This document shows positions 1,885 to 57,320 of a stretch of 57,903 nucleotides of DNA, in pieces (within the stretch, counting starts at the first letter, position 1; each line of letters opens with the position of its first letter). Position numbers and translations under genes: made by a program. The stretch comes from an uncultured Candidatus Saccharibacteria bacterium. GTDB lineage: Bacteria > Patescibacteriota > Doudnabacteria > UBA920. The stretch is from positions 1-57,903 of the forward strand of contig CAZQMO010000006.1 in assembly GCA_964594755.1 (NCBI GenBank), written 5' to 3'. Below the pieces are notes generated by a model that saw only the letters and a program-made list of their open reading frames with translations, had not been told where the DNA came from and did not search any database.

Positions 1885-1950
1885 TGTCATCCCCGCGAAG
1901 GCGGGAATCTCCTAAAATATAGGAGATCCTGAATCAAGTTCAGGATGACA
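1885..1950. repeat. 66-bp palindromic (REP/RPE-like) element, TGTCATCC...GGATGACA ends
   Basis: Terminal inverted repeats enclose the hairpins CCCGC-GAAG-GCGGG, ATCTCCTA/TAGGAGAT and CCTGAA/TTCAGG; relatives at 22496, 56017 and 57645. Confidence 0.9.
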
Positions 1951-2458: not shown

Positions 2459-3736
2459 ATGAATAAACTCAGTTTAATTTGGAAAACTAAGGATCTGCGC
2501 TGGAAGATCACAATGGTCTTGATTCTTTTGTTAATGACACGCGTTTTAGCACATATTCCGATTCCAGGGGTCAGTGTTGAAGGTTTGCGTACTTTCTTTG
2601 AAGGCAATCAATTCTTGAACTTGTTAAATATCTTTTCTGGTGGTGGTTTGAGCAACTTCTCCATTGCGTTGCTTGGTGTTGGCCCTTACATTACTGCTTC
2701 AATTATCATGCAATTGTTGGCTATGATTGTGCCGTCTTTGCAAGAATTACAAAAGGAAAGCGGTGAAGCCGGTCGTACTAAAATTAACCAGTATACTCGA
2801 TTTTTAACAATTCCGTTAGCTATTTTGTCTGGGTTCGGAACGATTCGGTTATTGCAGAGCCAAGGTGGCGCTGAATTACTCGGAGTGTTCACTCCATTCC
2901 AATGGTTTTTAACTTTGTTAGCGGTAACAGCTGGAACTATGCTCGTGATGTGGATTGGTGAAATTATTTCTGAATACGGTATCGGTAATGGGATTTCTTT
3001 AGTAATTTTTGCAGGTATCGTTGCTCAGCTACCAACTAGTGTTGGTTCTCTGATTGAATTATATGACCCAACTCAGTTACCGACCATTCTTGGTTTCGCA
3101 GCTGTGGCGTTGTTAGTTATTGCTGGGGTAGTTTATGTGACTGAGGCTCAGCGTAATATTCCAGTTTCGTATGCAAAACGCATGCAAGGGGAGCGTCAGG
3201 TTGGTGGGGTTAGCTCACATCTACCCCTGCGTTTAAACCAGGCTGGTGTAATCCCAATTATTTTTGCCATTTCTTTGTTATTGTTCCCAGCTATCATCGC
3301 GCAGTTCTTTGTGAACGCAAAGACTCCATTAGTGGCAGAATGGGCTCAAAAGGCCATTGATTTTACTAATAATCAAGGACTTTGGTATGGGGTTGCTTAT
3401 TTCGTGTTAGTTGTCTTGTTTACCTATTTTTACACTAACATTGTGGTAAATCCAGATGATGTCTCTCAGAACATGCAGCGCAGTGGTGGATTCATCCAAG
3501 GTATTCGTCCAGGTCGCCAAACCGCTGACTACTTGTATAAAGTGTTGAATCGCATTACTTTACCTGGTTCATTGTTTTTAGGTACCATCGCTATCTTACC
3601 GTTTTTGATGCAAACCTGGACTGGAACTCAGGCTTTAACATTTGGCGGAACTGGTTTGTTGATTGTAGTTTCAGTGGTAATTGAGTCTATTAAGCAAGTA
3701 GAAGCTCAATTAACAATGCATGACTATCAGAAGTAA
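2459..3736 (+). CDS. secY: Preprotein translocase subunit SecY
   Basis: SIALLGVGPYITASIIMQLL, GIGNGISLVIFAGI, GGFIQGIRPG, FGGTGLLIVV; ATG 2459 preferred over the upstream TTG. Confidence 0.98.
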   Translation: MNKLSLIWKTKDLRWKITMVLILLLMTRVLAHIPIPGVSVEGLRTFFEGNQFLNLLNIFSGGGLSNFSIALLGVGPYITASIIMQLLAMIVPSLQELQKESGEAGRTKINQYTRFLTIPLAILSGFGTIRLLQSQGGAELLGVFTPFQWFLTLLAVTAGTMLVMWIGEIISEYGIGNGISLVIFAGIVAQLPTSVGSLIELYDPTQLPTILGFAAVALLVIAGVVYVTEAQRNIPVSYAKRMQGERQVGGVSSHLPLRLNQAGVIPIIFAISLLLFPAIIAQFFVNAKTPLVAEWAQKAIDFTNNQGLWYGVAYFVLVVLFTYFYTNIVVNPDDVSQNMQRSGGFIQGIRPGRQTADYLYKVLNRITLPGSLFLGTIAILPFLMQTWTGTQALTFGGTGLLIVVSVVIESIKQVEAQLTMHDYQK

Positions 3737-3931: not shown

Positions 3932-4264
3932 ATGGAGCAAGAAAATAAGGAATTTCCCAATCAAATAGAGCAGTCTCCGCATGAAATCTCTACACCAGAG
4001 ACACCTGTACTTGAAACCGAAGAAGGTGTAATTGTTGAGCAGCCAATGACTGAGGAAGAGAAGCAGGAAATCACTGAACAGTTGGCTCTGGAGCAGGTTC
4101 AACCTGTTGCGCCAACCGTTCAAGAAGTTAAGGCTGTAGCAATGGAACGAGCAGCAGTAGAGCAAGAACAGTTGGATAAGGCTCATGAACACCTCCAAAA
4201 GGATAACGAGATTGAAACCAGCGCTGATGCTCACAGCATACTTAACGACTTAATGAATAACTAA
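3932..4264 (+). CDS. Acidic hypothetical protein
   Basis: Glu/Gln-rich ORF; the ORF-track start at 3911 overlaps a TGG-TATAAT element (3917-3922), so ATG 3932 is preferred. Confidence 0.7.
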   Translation: MEQENKEFPNQIEQSPHEISTPETPVLETEEGVIVEQPMTEEEKQEITEQLALEQVQPVAPTVQEVKAVAMERAAVEQEQLDKAHEHLQKDNEIETSADAHSILNDLMNN

Positions 4265-17379: not shown

Positions 17380-17393
17380 AGAGTAAAAAGTAA
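17368..17393 (+). repeat. Four AGTAA-core heptamer units upstream of the four-helix-bundle gene
   Basis: AGTAA at 17368, 17375, 17382, 17389 (exact 7-bp period). Confidence 0.8.
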
Positions 17394-17749
17394 TGAAAGA
17401 TACTAATTATCAACATTGGCCAGTATGGCAAAAGTCTATGGAATTAGTACTTAAGATTTATCAGTTAACTAATAATTTTCCAAAGTCTGAAATGTTTGGT
17501 TTGACTTCACAAATGCGCAGATGTGTGACTTCTATTCCTGCTAATATAGCCGAAGGAAGTAGAAGGAATTCTAAGAAGGAATTGCATAGATTTTTATCTA
17601 TAGCTTTTGGTTCTGGGGCAGAACTAGAAACTTTTTTACAGATAGTTTTATCGCTAAAATTTATAAAATCATACCAATTTAATGAATCATATTTGCTTTT
17701 GCAGGAAGTGATGAAGATGTTAAATGTAATGACCAAAAATACCAGGTAA
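17393..17749 (+). CDS. Four-helix-bundle protein (23S rRNA IVP/Avd-like family)
   Basis: VWQKSMEL..IYQLT..FPKSEMFGLTSQMRR..SIPANIAEG; markedly AT-rich. Confidence 0.92.
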   Translation: MKDTNYQHWPVWQKSMELVLKIYQLTNNFPKSEMFGLTSQMRRCVTSIPANIAEGSRRNSKKELHRFLSIAFGSGAELETFLQIVLSLKFIKSYQFNESYLLLQEVMKMLNVMTKNTR

Positions 17750-32901: not shown

Positions 32902-34197
32902 TTATCGCTGTATCAACACGGAGTAAAGATTGTTTTCTGATTTGACTATCAGAGCTTTTTGGTTTGAGGTAATGAAAAGTTGTTGGCTTGGTCCAGTATA
33001 CAGCATGTAGCGATTTTGATTTCCTCGAGAATCAATTTCGATCGCTTCAGTACCATTGGGCCCAGCAATGAACCCGTAACCAAACAAGGGAATCACATTG
33101 GCTGCCATCAGGTTTTCTGTGGTTCTAGCCAGCAGTTCGCTGCGGTTTGAGGTAAAGTTATAGAAGAAAATTTCTGTAGGGGTTACGTAGGTTAAGCGTT
33201 GGCTATTGGGGTCTAACTCAACAACTTTCACGAAACTGTTTAAGAGCTCTAGAGTCTGGTTAACTCGGTAAAAACTTTCTCCTGCTAACATAAATAACTC
33301 CTTTTGATTTGTTAAAAAGAATTTTAACTCTTGTTGTTGCGGTAAGCCCTCTGAAACAATTACCAATTGTTTAGTAATAGTTGTACCTGTCCAAAGATAA
33401 GTTGCCAGTTGATAGGTAGCTTCAGTTTCGGACGCTACATAAAAAGTTCCGTCTTTAATAGTGTAGCCCCAGACATTGCTCAGCAACGTTTGGGTTTGAT
33501 TGCTGCCAAATCGCCCAATAACCAAGTTGTTATCAATGATTCCAGTAACAGAACTGCTGTCTAGGAGTGAGATTTGAGTTGCACTATTAAACACAGTTGG
33601 CAAAGCTGTTGTTTGCCAATTACTGCTATTCATTAGATAGCGCTGATTTTGGTCAGTTGTAACAAGCCAAAGATTATTGTCTTGTGTAGCTTGGAAGTTG
33701 GTAATAACAAACGGTAAGGTGGTTTGATTAGAAATCCTTTCATTAATAACATCATATAAAATTATTTCTTGGCCTTTGCTGTACAAAATTTGGTTGTCGC
33801 GCATTGCTACGGCATTGATTGTAGTATCAATAGCAATCGGTTCGGCTTCAGGTAGAAGTCTGATGGCGTCATTAATACTGCCGGCGTAGGTTACTTCTCC
33901 TGCTTCAATAAATAATTGTTTTTGCCAAGGACGAAAACCCTCCATAGTCACTCGCACGGTTTGCCAGCCTTGCTTCACAAACCGAATAGTGGTTGGAGTA
34001 GAACCAGCTTCTTGTTCGTTTAAGAATACAGTTGCACCGTCAGGTTCAGACTGGACATCGATAATTCCGGTATTAGTTGGTGAGGGGTCAAAAAAAGGTA
34101 GAGTACGCCCAGTCACATACAGAAGGATAAGGGGAGAGAGAACTATAAAGACCACAACCAGTAAGGCAATGATGAAATAACGAGCTTTTGAATCCAC
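32902..34197 (-). CDS. PEGA-domain membrane-anchored protein
   Basis: N-terminal TM; IDVQSEPDGATVFLN...G.QTVRVTMEGFRPW (PEGA) followed by a beta-rich body. Confidence 0.8.
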   Translation of the reverse strand: MDSKARYFIIALLVVVFIVLSPLILLYVTGRTLPFFDPSPTNTGIIDVQSEPDGATVFLNEQEAGSTPTTIRFVKQGWQTVRVTMEGFRPWQKQLFIEAGEVTYAGSINDAIRLLPEAEPIAIDTTINAVAMRDNQILYSKGQEIILYDVINERISNQTTLPFVITNFQATQDNNLWLVTTDQNQRYLMNSSNWQTTALPTVFNSATQISLLDSSSVTGIIDNNLVIGRFGSNQTQTLLSNVWGYTIKDGTFYVASETEATYQLATYLWTGTTITKQLVIVSEGLPQQQELKFFLTNQKELFMLAGESFYRVNQTLELLNSFVKVVELDPNSQRLTYVTPTEIFFYNFTSNRSELLARTTENLMAANVIPLFGYGFIAGPNGTEAIEIDSRGNQNRYMLYTGPSQQLFITSNQKALIVKSENNLYSVLIQR

Positions 34198-34318
34198 AAT
34201 AAAAAATTAGTTGGTAATTATCAATTCTGCTGTACAGAAGTGTATATATTATAACAGAATTTAAGGATTGTCGAGACCTAGACCAGATCGGCTATTCTAG
34301 CTACAATTGGAAAGCTAT

Positions 34319-41691: not shown

Positions 41692-42072
41692 ATGCCTAAA
41701 ATTGTATGCGCTGAAGACGATCAGATGATTGCCGCTTCCTTAGTGGAAGGGTTTAAGGGCGCTGGTTTTGAAGTAACTTCTGCCTATGATGGCGAAGAAG
41801 CTTTAGTAAAAATTAAGGAAGTTAAGCCAGATGTTGTGATTTTAGATATTATGATGCCTAAACTAGATGGGATTGGTGTGGTGTGGGAGCTGAAAGCTGA
41901 CGCCGACCTGGCCAAAATCCCAGTGGTTATGCTTACCAACTTAAGCGATCCAGCCACCGTGAGTAAAATCCTTGAAGCTGGGGTAACTGATTACCTGCTT
42001 AAAAGTGAACAATCCATAGATGAAATCGTTACCAAAGTCACCGAAGTAATGAATCGTGGCAAAGGTGAATAA
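41692..42072 (+). CDS. Stand-alone response regulator receiver
   Basis: AEDD, LDIMMPKLDG, VMLTN, DYLLK. Confidence 0.93.
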   Translation: MPKIVCAEDDQMIAASLVEGFKGAGFEVTSAYDGEEALVKIKEVKPDVVILDIMMPKLDGIGVVWELKADADLAKIPVVMLTNLSDPATVSKILEAGVTDYLLKSEQSIDEIVTKVTEVMNRGKGE

Positions 42073-55552: not shown

Positions 55553-56734
55553 ATGAAACAGGGAAGTAAGACAACTAAAAAGCGCGTACTTATGGCGCTT
55601 TCAGGCGGAATTGATTCTGCTGTTTCGGCGTATTTGCTGCAAAAAGCGGGTTACCAAGTTGAAGCCGCATTTATGAAAAACTGGTCCTCAACGGCTGGTT
55701 TAAAATATTCAGATTGTCCTTGGCTGATTGACCGCCAAGATGCGTTGCGCGTGGCTGCTCATTTGGGTATCCTTATGCACACAGTGAACTACGAAAAAGA
55801 ATATAAAAAGAGCGTAATGGATTATTTCTTTAAGGAATATCAGGCAGGACGCACGCCGAATCCCGATGTGATGTGCAATAAAGAAATCAAATTCAAAGTT
55901 TTATACAACTGGGCCATGAAGAACGGTTTTGATTACGTGGCAACCGGTCATTACGCCCAAGTCAAAAAAATAAAAAATAAGGCAGGGGAGGATTACCAAC
56001 TTAAGCGAAAATCCTCTGTCATTCCCGCGAAGGCGGGACTCCAGATTCCGAATCAAGCTCAGGATCACAATGGGTATACTTACCAACTCGTGCGGAGCAA
56101 AGATGAATTCAAAGATCAAACTTACTTCATTTATAATATCCAGCAATCACAACTCCCCCACTTGCTGTTCCCTATCGGCTCAAAGAAAAAATCCGAGGTT
56201 CGCGCTTTGGCCAAGAAGCTTAAGCTTCCGAATGCGGATAAAAAAGAAAGCATGGGGCTCTGCTTTGTGGGTCAGATTCGCTTAAAAGATTTTTTGTCAC
56301 AAAAAATTAAACCAAAAACCGGCCCAGTTGTTACCCAAGATGGCCAAAAGATTGGCGAGCATCAAGGCTTGCCGTATTACACGATTGGCCAGCGCCAAGG
56401 GATTAACGTTGGTCAAGGCGGACCCTGGTATGTGGTGAGCAAGAATCTAAAAACTAATACTTTGGTAGTTACCAATGACCCTAATGATCCGGCTTTGCAG
56501 ACTAAGGAGATTGAAATTCATAGCGTAAATTGGATTAGCAAGCCGCAATCATTTCCAGCTAAGCTTGTTGGTCGCTATCGCCATCAAGGCCAATTAGAAA
56601 AACTGACCATTATTCCAAAGGGCCGCAACCATTATGAAGTTAAGTTTGCCAAGCCTCAGACAGCTGTAGCTAGTGGCCAAAGTTTGGTGCTATACGACAA
56701 AAAAGTCTGCGTGGGCGGCGGGGTAATAAACTAA
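55553..56734 (+). CDS. mnmA: tRNA 2-thiouridylase MnmA
   Basis: SGGIDS PP-loop, TPNPDVMCN, ATGHYA, KDQTYF, ESMGLCF, YYTIGQRQG, SGQS. Confidence 0.97.
   Translation: MKQGSKTTKKRVLMALSGGIDSAVSAYLLQKAGYQVEAAFMKNWSSTAGLKYSDCPWLIDRQDALRVAAHLGILMHTVNYEKEYKKSVMDYFFKEYQAGRTPNPDVMCNKEIKFKVLYNWAMKNGFDYVATGHYAQVKKIKNKAGEDYQLKRKSSVIPAKAGLQIPNQAQDHNGYTYQLVRSKDEFKDQTYFIYNIQQSQLPHLLFPIGSKKKSEVRALAKKLKLPNADKKESMGLCFVGQIRLKDFLSQKIKPKTGPVVTQDGQKIGEHQGLPYYTIGQRQGINVGQGGPWYVVSKNLKTNTLVVTNDPNDPALQTKEIEIHSVNWISKPQSFPAKLVGRYRHQGQLEKLTIIPKGRNHYEVKFAKPQTAVASGQSLVLYDKKVCVGGGVIN
55993..56088. mobile_element. 87-bp in-frame insertion in mnmA carrying a TGTCATTCCCGCGAAGGCGGG palindromic element
   Basis: TTACCAACT direct repeat at 55993-56001 and 56080-56088; element at 56017-56069 resembles 1885-1950. 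Confidence 0.85.
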
Positions 56735-56756
56735 AACGACCAGGACTCTGGTCGTT

Positions 56757-57320
56757 TTATTCTGAGCTTAAGTCTGCGGTGTTAACAATGCCTGCCAGTT
56801 CGGCCCGGTAGTTTTGGGCAGCACTACCGTCAAAGACATAGTAATATTCACCATACTTAATTTGATAAATATTATTGTAATAGTTGGTGGCTTCATAACC
56901 ATTGGCTGTGACGAAGGTCATTTTGCCAAAGGCGCGAGGCTCGGCTGGCTCGGTTTTAGTTAAATAAATTTTAATCTGTGCGCGAGGATCATTGCGGGTG
57001 ACATAAACAATATACAAGTCATCAATGTCATCATTCCAAGTAACGTTCCAACCCTGCGGCCGGAGAAAAGTGAGCGGGTAGTCTTGATCTACGAACTCAT
57101 TCCATCTAGCTGTATCAGCTGGTTGAACTTGAGGAAACTCTGGTTCTGGAACTGATTCTTTTGTTGGAGTTTGTTCCTGGCTTATAGTCTTATCAATTTC
57201 ATCTTGAACATAGAGTTTGTTAATCCGGGTCAAAACTAAAGCTGCATACACTGTGCAGAGTACGATAATAATTAAGATTATAAAGCTTCTACTGGGAGTT
57301 GAGTGATGAGTCAATTTCAT
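56757..57320 (-). CDS. Membrane-anchored extracellular hypothetical protein
   Basis: N-terminal TM followed by a small globular domain. Confidence 0.7.
   Translation of the reverse strand: MKLTHHSTPSRSFIILIIIVLCTVYAALVLTRINKLYVQDEIDKTISQEQTPTKESVPEPEFPQVQPADTARWNEFVDQDYPLTFLRPQGWNVTWNDDIDDLYIVYVTRNDPRAQIKIYLTKTEPAEPRAFGKMTFVTANGYEATNYYNNIYQIKYGEYYYVFDGSAAQNYRAELAGIVNTADLSSE

Follow-up and report, generated by a model that had tools for sequence, protein, structure and literature searches.

The window analysed here, the whole 57,903-nt (58-kb) contig CAZQMO010000006.1 of an uncultured Candidatus Saccharibacteria bacterium of the Candidate Phyla Radiation (CPR), carries an mnmA gene for tRNA 2-thiouridine synthase whose intact reading frame contains a palindromic insert bracketed by a 9-bp direct repeat. 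We consider it likely that mnmA gained 78 bp in a single event in this lineage, together with a duplication of 9 bp of target sequence, and that the inserted DNA is a decayed inverted dimer of TGTC-tagged repetitive extragenic palindromic (REP) hairpins. The two copies of the repeat, TTACCAACT, lie 87 bp (29 codons) apart from start to start, at 55993 and 56080, and enclose 78 extra bp made up of a 15-nt spacer, a 53-nt core and a 10-nt spacer (Table 1); the frame through this segment is open, with no stops, and the peptide that it adds is YQLKRKSSVIPAKAGLQIPNQAQDHNGYT. A preliminary description of the window, drawn from its sequence alone, had located both repeat copies, read the DNA between them as a decayed copy of an element at 1885-1950 inserted in frame into mnmA of a CPR host, and derived the same extra peptide; each of these claims held in the analysis reported here.

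By alignment with orthologues, the decisive evidence for insertion is the empty site and not the repeat itself. A 9-mer common to the 40-nt flanks around a 53-nt gap is found at 1.06% of window positions, and because such 9-mers occur at about one position in a hundred the repeat alone is only mildly unlikely and counts as weak evidence. The nearest homologue, P0002 (locus L171), is a protein of 364 aa with 92% amino acid identity outside the loops that lacks exactly 29 residues, and its loop peptide, GHYAQVKKIKNKAGEDYQLVRSKDEFKDQTYF, is the window peptide minus the 29 inserted residues. Loci L171 and L001 each align with one exact 87-bp gap (29 codons) and hold a single, slightly divergent 9-mer, TTACCAGTT and CTACCAGCT, respectively. 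In a neighbour-joining tree built on MnmA proteins with the loops masked, the window protein pairs with the empty P0002, and the clade around this pair includes P0004, P0007, P0008, P0011 and P0013, which are also empty, so that one gain is far more parsimonious than many precise losses. Judged by these alignments, the insert is a lineage-specific, in-frame insertion in mnmA. The preliminary description had expected orthologues without the palindrome to have a shorter loop at this position, which proved correct for the nearest orthologues, where the 29 aa are missing, but not for many distant ones, whose loops are equally long or longer and derive from other palindromes that the description had missed.

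The converse direction of change, from an ancestral long loop to short alleles through precise, hairpin-promoted deletion between the 9-mers, draws on the fact that direct repeats flanking hairpins are classic deletion substrates and on the clear turnover of loops at this MnmA site. We regard it as highly improbable: at least seven empty alleles carry the same short hairpin, KNK(A/T)GE(D/N/T)YQL, which would call for many precise deletions as against one gain, and the other filled alleles carry different inserts and have no left 9-mer. A repeat-induced assembly chimera that placed the element in mnmA is conceivable for a metagenomic contig with a repeated element, but it is scarcely credible here, where the length of the insert is divisible by three, its frame contains no stop, unique mnmA sequence adjoins it left and right and it has diverged from the window's other copy, and where analogous inserts are present in independent assemblies.

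The core of the insert (56017-56069) aligns to the intact 1885-1950 element apart from a 13-nt gap in the centre and a few substitutions, and the middle hairpin of the family is absent from the mnmA copy. Patterns taken from either half of the element recovered these two copies and no third one in the window, against 0.00-0.02 expected from shuffled sequences. Folded as single-stranded DNA, the 1885 copy forms three hairpins (-18.7 kcal/mol, z -6.15), whereas the mnmA copy has kept hairpin 1 as its sole folding hairpin (-7.9 kcal/mol, z -1.4), and "decayed" is therefore the correct word for it. Seven more three-hairpin copies were found in metagenome-assembled genomes (MAGs) labelled Saccharibacteria/CPR, Peregrinibacteria, Sulfuricurvum and Mariprofundaceae. 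Together with the 1885 copy they give a unit that begins with hairpin 1, (T/C)GTC-ATTCCCGC-GAAG-GCGGGAAT-C, continues with a variable middle hairpin and ends with an inverse tagged hairpin, ATCCTGAA-TCAA-GTTCAGGAT-GAC(A). The 1885 element itself has stop codons in all six frames. It sits inside a ribosomal-protein operon, with rpsE ending at 1860 and rplO starting at 1964 and no L30 gene between S5 and L15, an absence that is a known trait of CPR bacteria.

Hairpin 1 fits a published REP definition. Sequences of this kind with a CGTC or TGTC tag were surveyed by Di Nocera et al. 2013, who define the CGTC-1 family by a CGTC/TGTC tag (CCTC allowed), an 8-bp stem with A-T in the first and second pair, a 4-nt loop and a short tail that is mostly CCA, and who include in it dRS3 of Neisseria and RPE-6 of Rickettsia conorii; RPE-6 and RPE-4 of R. 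conorii are assigned to CGTC families of the same superfamily, for which no dedicated transposase has been reported (PMC3733652). In our copies the tag is TGTC at 56017-56020 and 1885-1888 and CGTC in L084 and L086; the consensus ATTCCCGC-GAAG-GCGGGAAT pairs at 8/8 stem positions and both window copies at 7/8; and the tail is CCAG in the mnmA copy, L084 and L170 and CCAT in L082 and L086, with CTA or CTC instead of CCA in some family copies. The inverted-dimer layout is clear, and the 58 kb hold two copies. The window element thus shares with CGTC-1 the TGTC tag, the 8-bp A-T-first stem, the 4-nt loop, the CCA tail and the inverted dimer, as well as a distribution that is mostly intergenic and occasionally in frame inside genes, with no dedicated transposase known. 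It differs in its CPR host, a phylum outside the survey, and in a dimer that encloses a variable third hairpin, while the mnmA copy differs further in lacking the middle hairpin and the greater part of the second tagged hairpin, and in having spacers and a 9-bp repeat, which the survey does not mention.

The preliminary description had invoked the Rickettsia palindromic elements (RPEs) as a parallel, and the parallel turns out to be more than an analogy, since the hairpin fits the CGTC/TGTC REP definition and the superfamily so defined contains RPE-6 and RPE-4 (PMC3733652). As a matter of comparison, the link to the RPE families would run solely through this published assignment. As far as the summary in PMC10969869 of the work of Ogata et al. 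2000 and 2002 extends, RPEs and the mnmA insert are alike as in-frame palindromic repeats in housekeeping genes of reduced genomes that encode a peptide compatible with the fold; RPE-1 is there described as ~150 bp long and genus-specific, unlike the window element, a REP dimer of 53-66 nt spread across phyla. What we see in mnmA is of the RPE type in each respect, namely an in-frame palindrome in a conserved gene, missing from the closest orthologues and lying in a region where the fold accommodates it.

A second published relative is the Neisseria Transformation Sequence (NTS), which contains dRS3 and is targeted in single-stranded form by the GIY-YIG nuclease SsnA; the C after the palindrome is reported to be the most crucial base for SsnA binding (PMC11893778). 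Hairpin 1 of the mnmA copy agrees with the NTS consensus CGTCATTCCCGCGMAVGCGGGAATCYRG at 26/28 positions, and the 1885 copy matches the degenerate Ssn-related motif (SRM; shuffle expectation 0.24 per window), which the mnmA copy fails by one base. Unlike the Neisseria case, no ssnA gene, flanked by repeats or otherwise, was found in the window, and NTS is rarely located in genes (2% in N. meningitidis, PMC11893778). Motif searches of the window and the examined loci yielded no small GIY-YIG (Ssn-like) protein, a Pfam scan of ten selected window open reading frames (ORFs), with most ORFs outside that scan, yielded no transposase or GIY-YIG domain, and the gene map of the window lists mainly housekeeping-looking products. 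A gathering-threshold Rfam scan of the window returned one tRNA only, with no match at either element. Paired copies of the family flank a 75-aa ORF in L081 and a 130-aa ORF, read as ATP synthase delta, in L082.

Exact (28/28, L084:4408-4435) or near-exact (L086:2407-2434) NTS sequences are present in Sulfuricurvum and Mariprofundaceae MAGs, and such sequences also occur in CPR; to judge by these matches, the 28-nt sequence is almost invariant across distant phyla. A further case is the mnmA gene for P0014 (L170:3424-3480), with a single NTS-type hairpin (27/28 to NTS) that is read in another frame as SFPRRRESS and is enclosed by a small outer inverted repeat, ATCATC...GATGAT, recalling published REPs that lie within larger palindromes.

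This resemblance raises the question of function. The insert could be an NTS-like site for an Ssn-type nuclease that limits transformation or recombination at mnmA, or it could be selected as a feature of the mRNA or protein, and its 26/28 agreement with a sequence cut by SsnA in Neisseria, its retention of the C that is crucial for SsnA binding and the recurrence of palindromes at the MnmA loop in many lineages all point that way. We nevertheless hold a function to be very improbable, because the mnmA copy shows decay and narrowly fails to match the SRM motif, no small GIY-YIG gene turned up in motif searches of the window, the closest relatives have no insert, and the loops of other lineages are unrelated sequences, which fits tolerance better than a common function.

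The 393-aa window protein matches all three MnmA Pfam families (PF03054, PF20259 and PF20258), with PF03054, the N-terminal HUP domain, matched as one unbroken stretch over residues 10-240 that spans the insert. It matches the MnmA structures 2hma and 2der in the PDB (E about 1e-88), and its PP-loop SGGIDS and conserved Cys motifs align with those of the solved enzymes, so that it shows the three-domain architecture, the PP-loop and the Cys motifs expected of MnmA. Alignments to the solved structures (HMMER) break at query residues 139/169. In an AlphaFold2 model built from a 32-sequence alignment (mean pLDDT, the per-residue confidence score, 71; TM-score 0.76-0.82 to 2hma and 2der), residues 135-141 (AQVKKIK) and 175-181 (YTYQLVR) form strands and residues 144-172 have pLDDT <50. 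The insert is thereby located at the tip of a β-hairpin after the GHYA strand of the PP-loop domain, where it is modelled as a low-confidence loop, as the preliminary description had anticipated in expecting a surface loop. The native strand is built in the model by the second YQL copy, and the first copy and the REP-derived peptide lie in the loop. The 29 inserted residues thus probably form a disordered surface loop, and since the model has the duplicated YQL allowing the native strand to re-form, MnmA with the insert probably still works. We infer that MnmA tolerates the insert, a selfish or neutral passenger and not an adaptation; the insert would survive because the hairpin tip would accept almost any in-frame addition.

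Long inverted repeats inside translated genes, with both arms coding, are also known from the mitochondrial palindromes of Nematomorpha, but those lie in conserved protein regions (PMC6649704), whereas the mnmA palindromes are additions at permissive bacterial loops. Two further candidates concerned the transcript. Programmed translational bypass, in which identical take-off and landing codons surround a hairpin as in T4 gene 60 and the yeast mitochondrial byps, was rejected, as the insert and all but one of ~150 MnmA loops are open in frame, which spacers that escape translation would not be expected to be. A regulatory hairpin of the mRNA or tRNA-mimic type is unsupported, the loops of different lineages having no common sequence or loop motif.

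How the 78 bp arrived is less certain than that they did. The preliminary description took the 9-bp repeat for a scar of the target-site duplication (TSD) type that hints at mechanism, and this claim was not sustained: the repeat sits 15 and 10 nt from the ends of the palindrome, the spacers have no terminal inverted repeat of their own, and no flanking duplication is evident by inspection at the eight intergenic copies of the family. A classical miniature inverted-repeat transposable element (MITE) would be a 78-bp unit moved in trans by a transposase making 9-bp staggered cuts, with the TTACCAACT pair as the TSD. The perfect 9/9 repeat, its single copy at the empty site and the outer TGTCAT/ATGACA inverted repeat of the intact copies are what such an element would leave, and like bacterial MITEs the element is small and non-coding, has short terminal inverted repeats and, in this copy, is bracketed by a direct repeat. 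The duplication of a MITE, however, abuts the terminal inverted repeats and does so at most copies, which is not what we find, and no parent insertion sequence is known. No transposase appears in the window gene map or among the ten Pfam-scanned ORFs, and the published REP superfamily is described with no dedicated transposase (PMC3733652). The MITE-type reading is poorly supported because of the spacers, the lack of an evident duplication at the intergenic copies and the lack of a published dedicated transposase, and we consider it decidedly unlikely.

Comparison with other mnmA genes places the insert in a wider pattern. We surveyed ~150 CPR mnmA loci with an extractable loop (among L001-L171), taking the segment from GHYA to (D/E)EFKDQTYF, which is 24-74 aa long among orthologues. 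The loop is open in frame at every locus examined except L130, where a stop lies just past it. Among the 82 loops of at least 60 nt, 49 fold at z < -2 relative to shuffles (mean -2.7, best -9.7), compared with 3/81 upstream and 6/78 downstream controls of the same length from the same genes (means -0.1 and -0.7). The insertion points within the hairpin vary by ~10 codons, and the palindromes belong to many unrelated families, including (T/C)GTCAT-ended elements, long hairpins with arms of heptamer repeats (for example GTGGGCA, AGGGTAA, ACAAGAA and GTAGTAG) and others. When sharing was scored with 17-mers, 13-mers being too noisy, the same palindrome families reappeared at other places in the loci and at two more variable sites of MnmA. 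In L046 an identical (100%) 72-nt palindrome, encoding IGLSAKRIGLSKETLALSPARYTL, stands in frame both after GHYA and after HSVNWI (3391-3477 and 4003-4075). In-frame REP or RPE insertions, including double ones in a single gene, have been described before, as have different REPs at about the same recB site in two Xanthomonas species (PMC3733652). The pattern of the loops is better matched by a permissive sink than by a target of specific sequence.

Several individual loci illustrate this diversity. The mnmA gene of L046 has a third extra segment, SLREGVHPTPKQSKQKDRLLRVARNDTRAV, before VVGHHAGL. A heptamer-armed hairpin (ACAAGAA... / ...TTGTCAC) occurs twice in the mnmA of L042 (2373-2477 and 2700-2790), in the loop after GHYA and in a variable loop before the conserved GEHQGL motif, and similar hairpins (GTGGGCA, AGGGTAA, GTAGTAG, GTAAGTA) are present in other loci, also outside mnmA at L057:180, L059:2280 and L023:1980. 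The gene for P0013 (L296:10001-11176) combines an empty loop 1 with a GC-rich extra segment of ~36 residues (SSRRARDARALPEQARVGGSERKRGDGV) at the second variable site.

Filled and empty loops also distinguish otherwise near-identical alleles: L169 and L295 are 97.8% identical in nucleotide sequence and L002 and L296 95.7%, with the extra differences clustering in ~35 nt next to the loop on inspection of the alignments, and filled alleles are scattered, not monophyletic, on the backbone tree. Given these pairs and this scatter, loops seem to move between alleles, and the allele comparison suggests that loop cassettes are exchanged by recombination. The window insert could itself be a loop cassette imported from a relative's filled mnmA allele into an empty one, with the right-hand junction formed by homology in YQLVRS and the left-hand one formed illegitimately, immediately behind the YQL of the recipient; the 9-bp repeat would then be a by-product. 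Such an import would account for the 16 nt of left spacer and element end in common with L168 and for the Y-x-YQL right flank of L168, L169 and L002, and it agrees with the filled/empty difference between near-identical alleles, the loop flanks that on inspection look more divergent than the gene average and the non-monophyletic filled alleles. However, an allele that combines an NTS-type core with these spacers is not known, the two 9-mers are identical although the codons vary synonymously among relatives, and the sequence just after copy 2 is of the window/L171 type, which would leave an extremely short homologous tract; we therefore treat the import as doubtful.

For the favoured insertion and duplication, the mechanism that we put forward tentatively, as having a little short of an even chance, is the capture of a REP-bearing fragment, by way of a staggered break or of an illegitimate plus a homologous junction, and not MITE cut-and-paste. 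A donor fragment carrying the REP and its own short flanks would have been captured at a break whose ends were staggered by 9 nt or, alternatively, through one illegitimate and one homologous junction, and its relatives may include the inserts that other mnmA alleles, such as L168, already carry. The 16-nt AAATCCTCTGTCATTC, comprising the left spacer and the first core bases, is also found in the otherwise different mnmA insert of L168, and L168, L169 and L002 have the right flank Y-x-YQL as well; these common sequences suggest a donor related to the inserts of other mnmA alleles.

Four points weigh against this account of the insertion. A donor copy with the same spacers was not found in scans with the extended left end: a contig scan with AAATCCTCTGTCATYC gave at least 120 matches in all phyla, which is chance level for 16 nt in 596 Gb, nearly all of them unrelated, and a gapped pattern gave three matches (two of them orthologous) with unrelated outer flanks. 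A mobilising nuclease or transposase was likewise not found by motif searches, the window gene map and Pfam on ten ORFs of the 58 kb. A perfect 9/9 repeat beside an element ~10% diverged from its consensus is slightly awkward but not improbable, with a probability of ~0.15 under equal decay, and the contig is metagenomic.

A broader proposal is that, in this CPR clade, the MnmA hairpin tip and two further loops of the protein actively receive hairpin DNA as a landing pad, with palindromes of many families copied in, between loops and between alleles by a single-strand, hairpin-directed process that could rely on a nuclease, Ssn-like or not, or on template switching during replication. We rate it as rather unlikely; if it were true, palindromic repeats would routinely drive the growth of protein loops and the diversification of alleles in CPR genomes. 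The hot-spot pattern of the loop is a more novel lead than the single insert, and one loop with dozens of unrelated palindromes, together with identical palindromes at two sites of one gene, offers a natural system in which to study the spread of hairpin repeats and the tolerance of proteins for them.

In-frame palindromic repeats are textbook selfish DNA that makes new protein segments, documented mainly in Rickettsia and a few Proteobacteria. The mnmA case extends them to the CPR/Patescibacteria, a known kind of event in a new lineage, ties them to the NTS/dRS3/CGTC REP superfamily, whose partner nuclease (Ssn) has recently been described, and supplies clean filled/empty allele pairs at the mnmA loci. 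It is also a practical warning for the annotation and alignment of CPR proteins. Within the limited library that could be searched, we found no report of an in-frame REP or RPE in CPR or in mnmA, nor of one loop collecting many palindrome families, and literature searches with sequence strings of the element gave no match.

Table 1. Coordinates of the mnmA insert, its host gene and the intact element in the window.
Feature	Position	Strand	Remarks
mnmA (tRNA 2-thiouridine synthase)	55553..56734	+	393 aa, intact frame containing the insert
Direct repeat copy 1, TTACCAACT	55993..56001	+	Encodes part of D-YQL; in the disordered loop of the model
Left spacer TAAGCGAAAATCCTC	56002..56016	+	15 nt, outside the family consensus
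TGTC-tagged hairpin 1, NTS/dRS3-like	56017..56044	+	26/28 to NTS; fits CGTC-1; tag 56017-56020, stem 56021-56028, loop GAAG 56029-56032, stem 56033-56040, tail CCAG 56041-56044
Decayed second tagged hairpin, inverse orientation	56045..56069	+	Consensus ATCCTGAATCAAGTTCAGGAT-GACA, here ATTCCGAATCAAGCTCAGGAT-CACA
Right spacer ATGGGTATAC	56070..56079	+	10 nt, from core to repeat copy 2
Direct repeat copy 2, TTACCAACT	56080..56088	+	Encodes YQL of the modelled β-strand
Intact family copy	1885..1950	+	Between rpsE (S5) and rplO (L15); three hairpins closed by TGTCAT/ATGACA

Some minor features of the window were noted alongside. The 9-mer TTACCAACT occurs five times where 0.67 would be expected, a count not attained in any of 100 shuffles; the sites outside mnmA are 33696-33704 (-), 34209-34217 (-) and 41933-41941 (+). 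The native mnmA sequence GTCATTACGCCCAAG, which holds the GHYAQ codons (55947-55961) and lies 71 nt upstream of the insert, is identical to the 5' end of the element, GTCATTCCCGCGAAG, at 11/15 positions, a likeness that may reflect chance or a pseudo-end. A perfect 12-bp inverted repeat, TAAAACGACCAG/CTGGTCGTTTTA, at 56732-56759 overlaps the mnmA stop between convergent genes and is probably a bidirectional terminator. The gene at 17393-17749, among housekeeping genes, encodes 118 aa and belongs to the 23S rRNA-intervening-sequence protein family (PF05635, E 3e-38); it also matches the bAvd-like family (PF22296) below cutoff.

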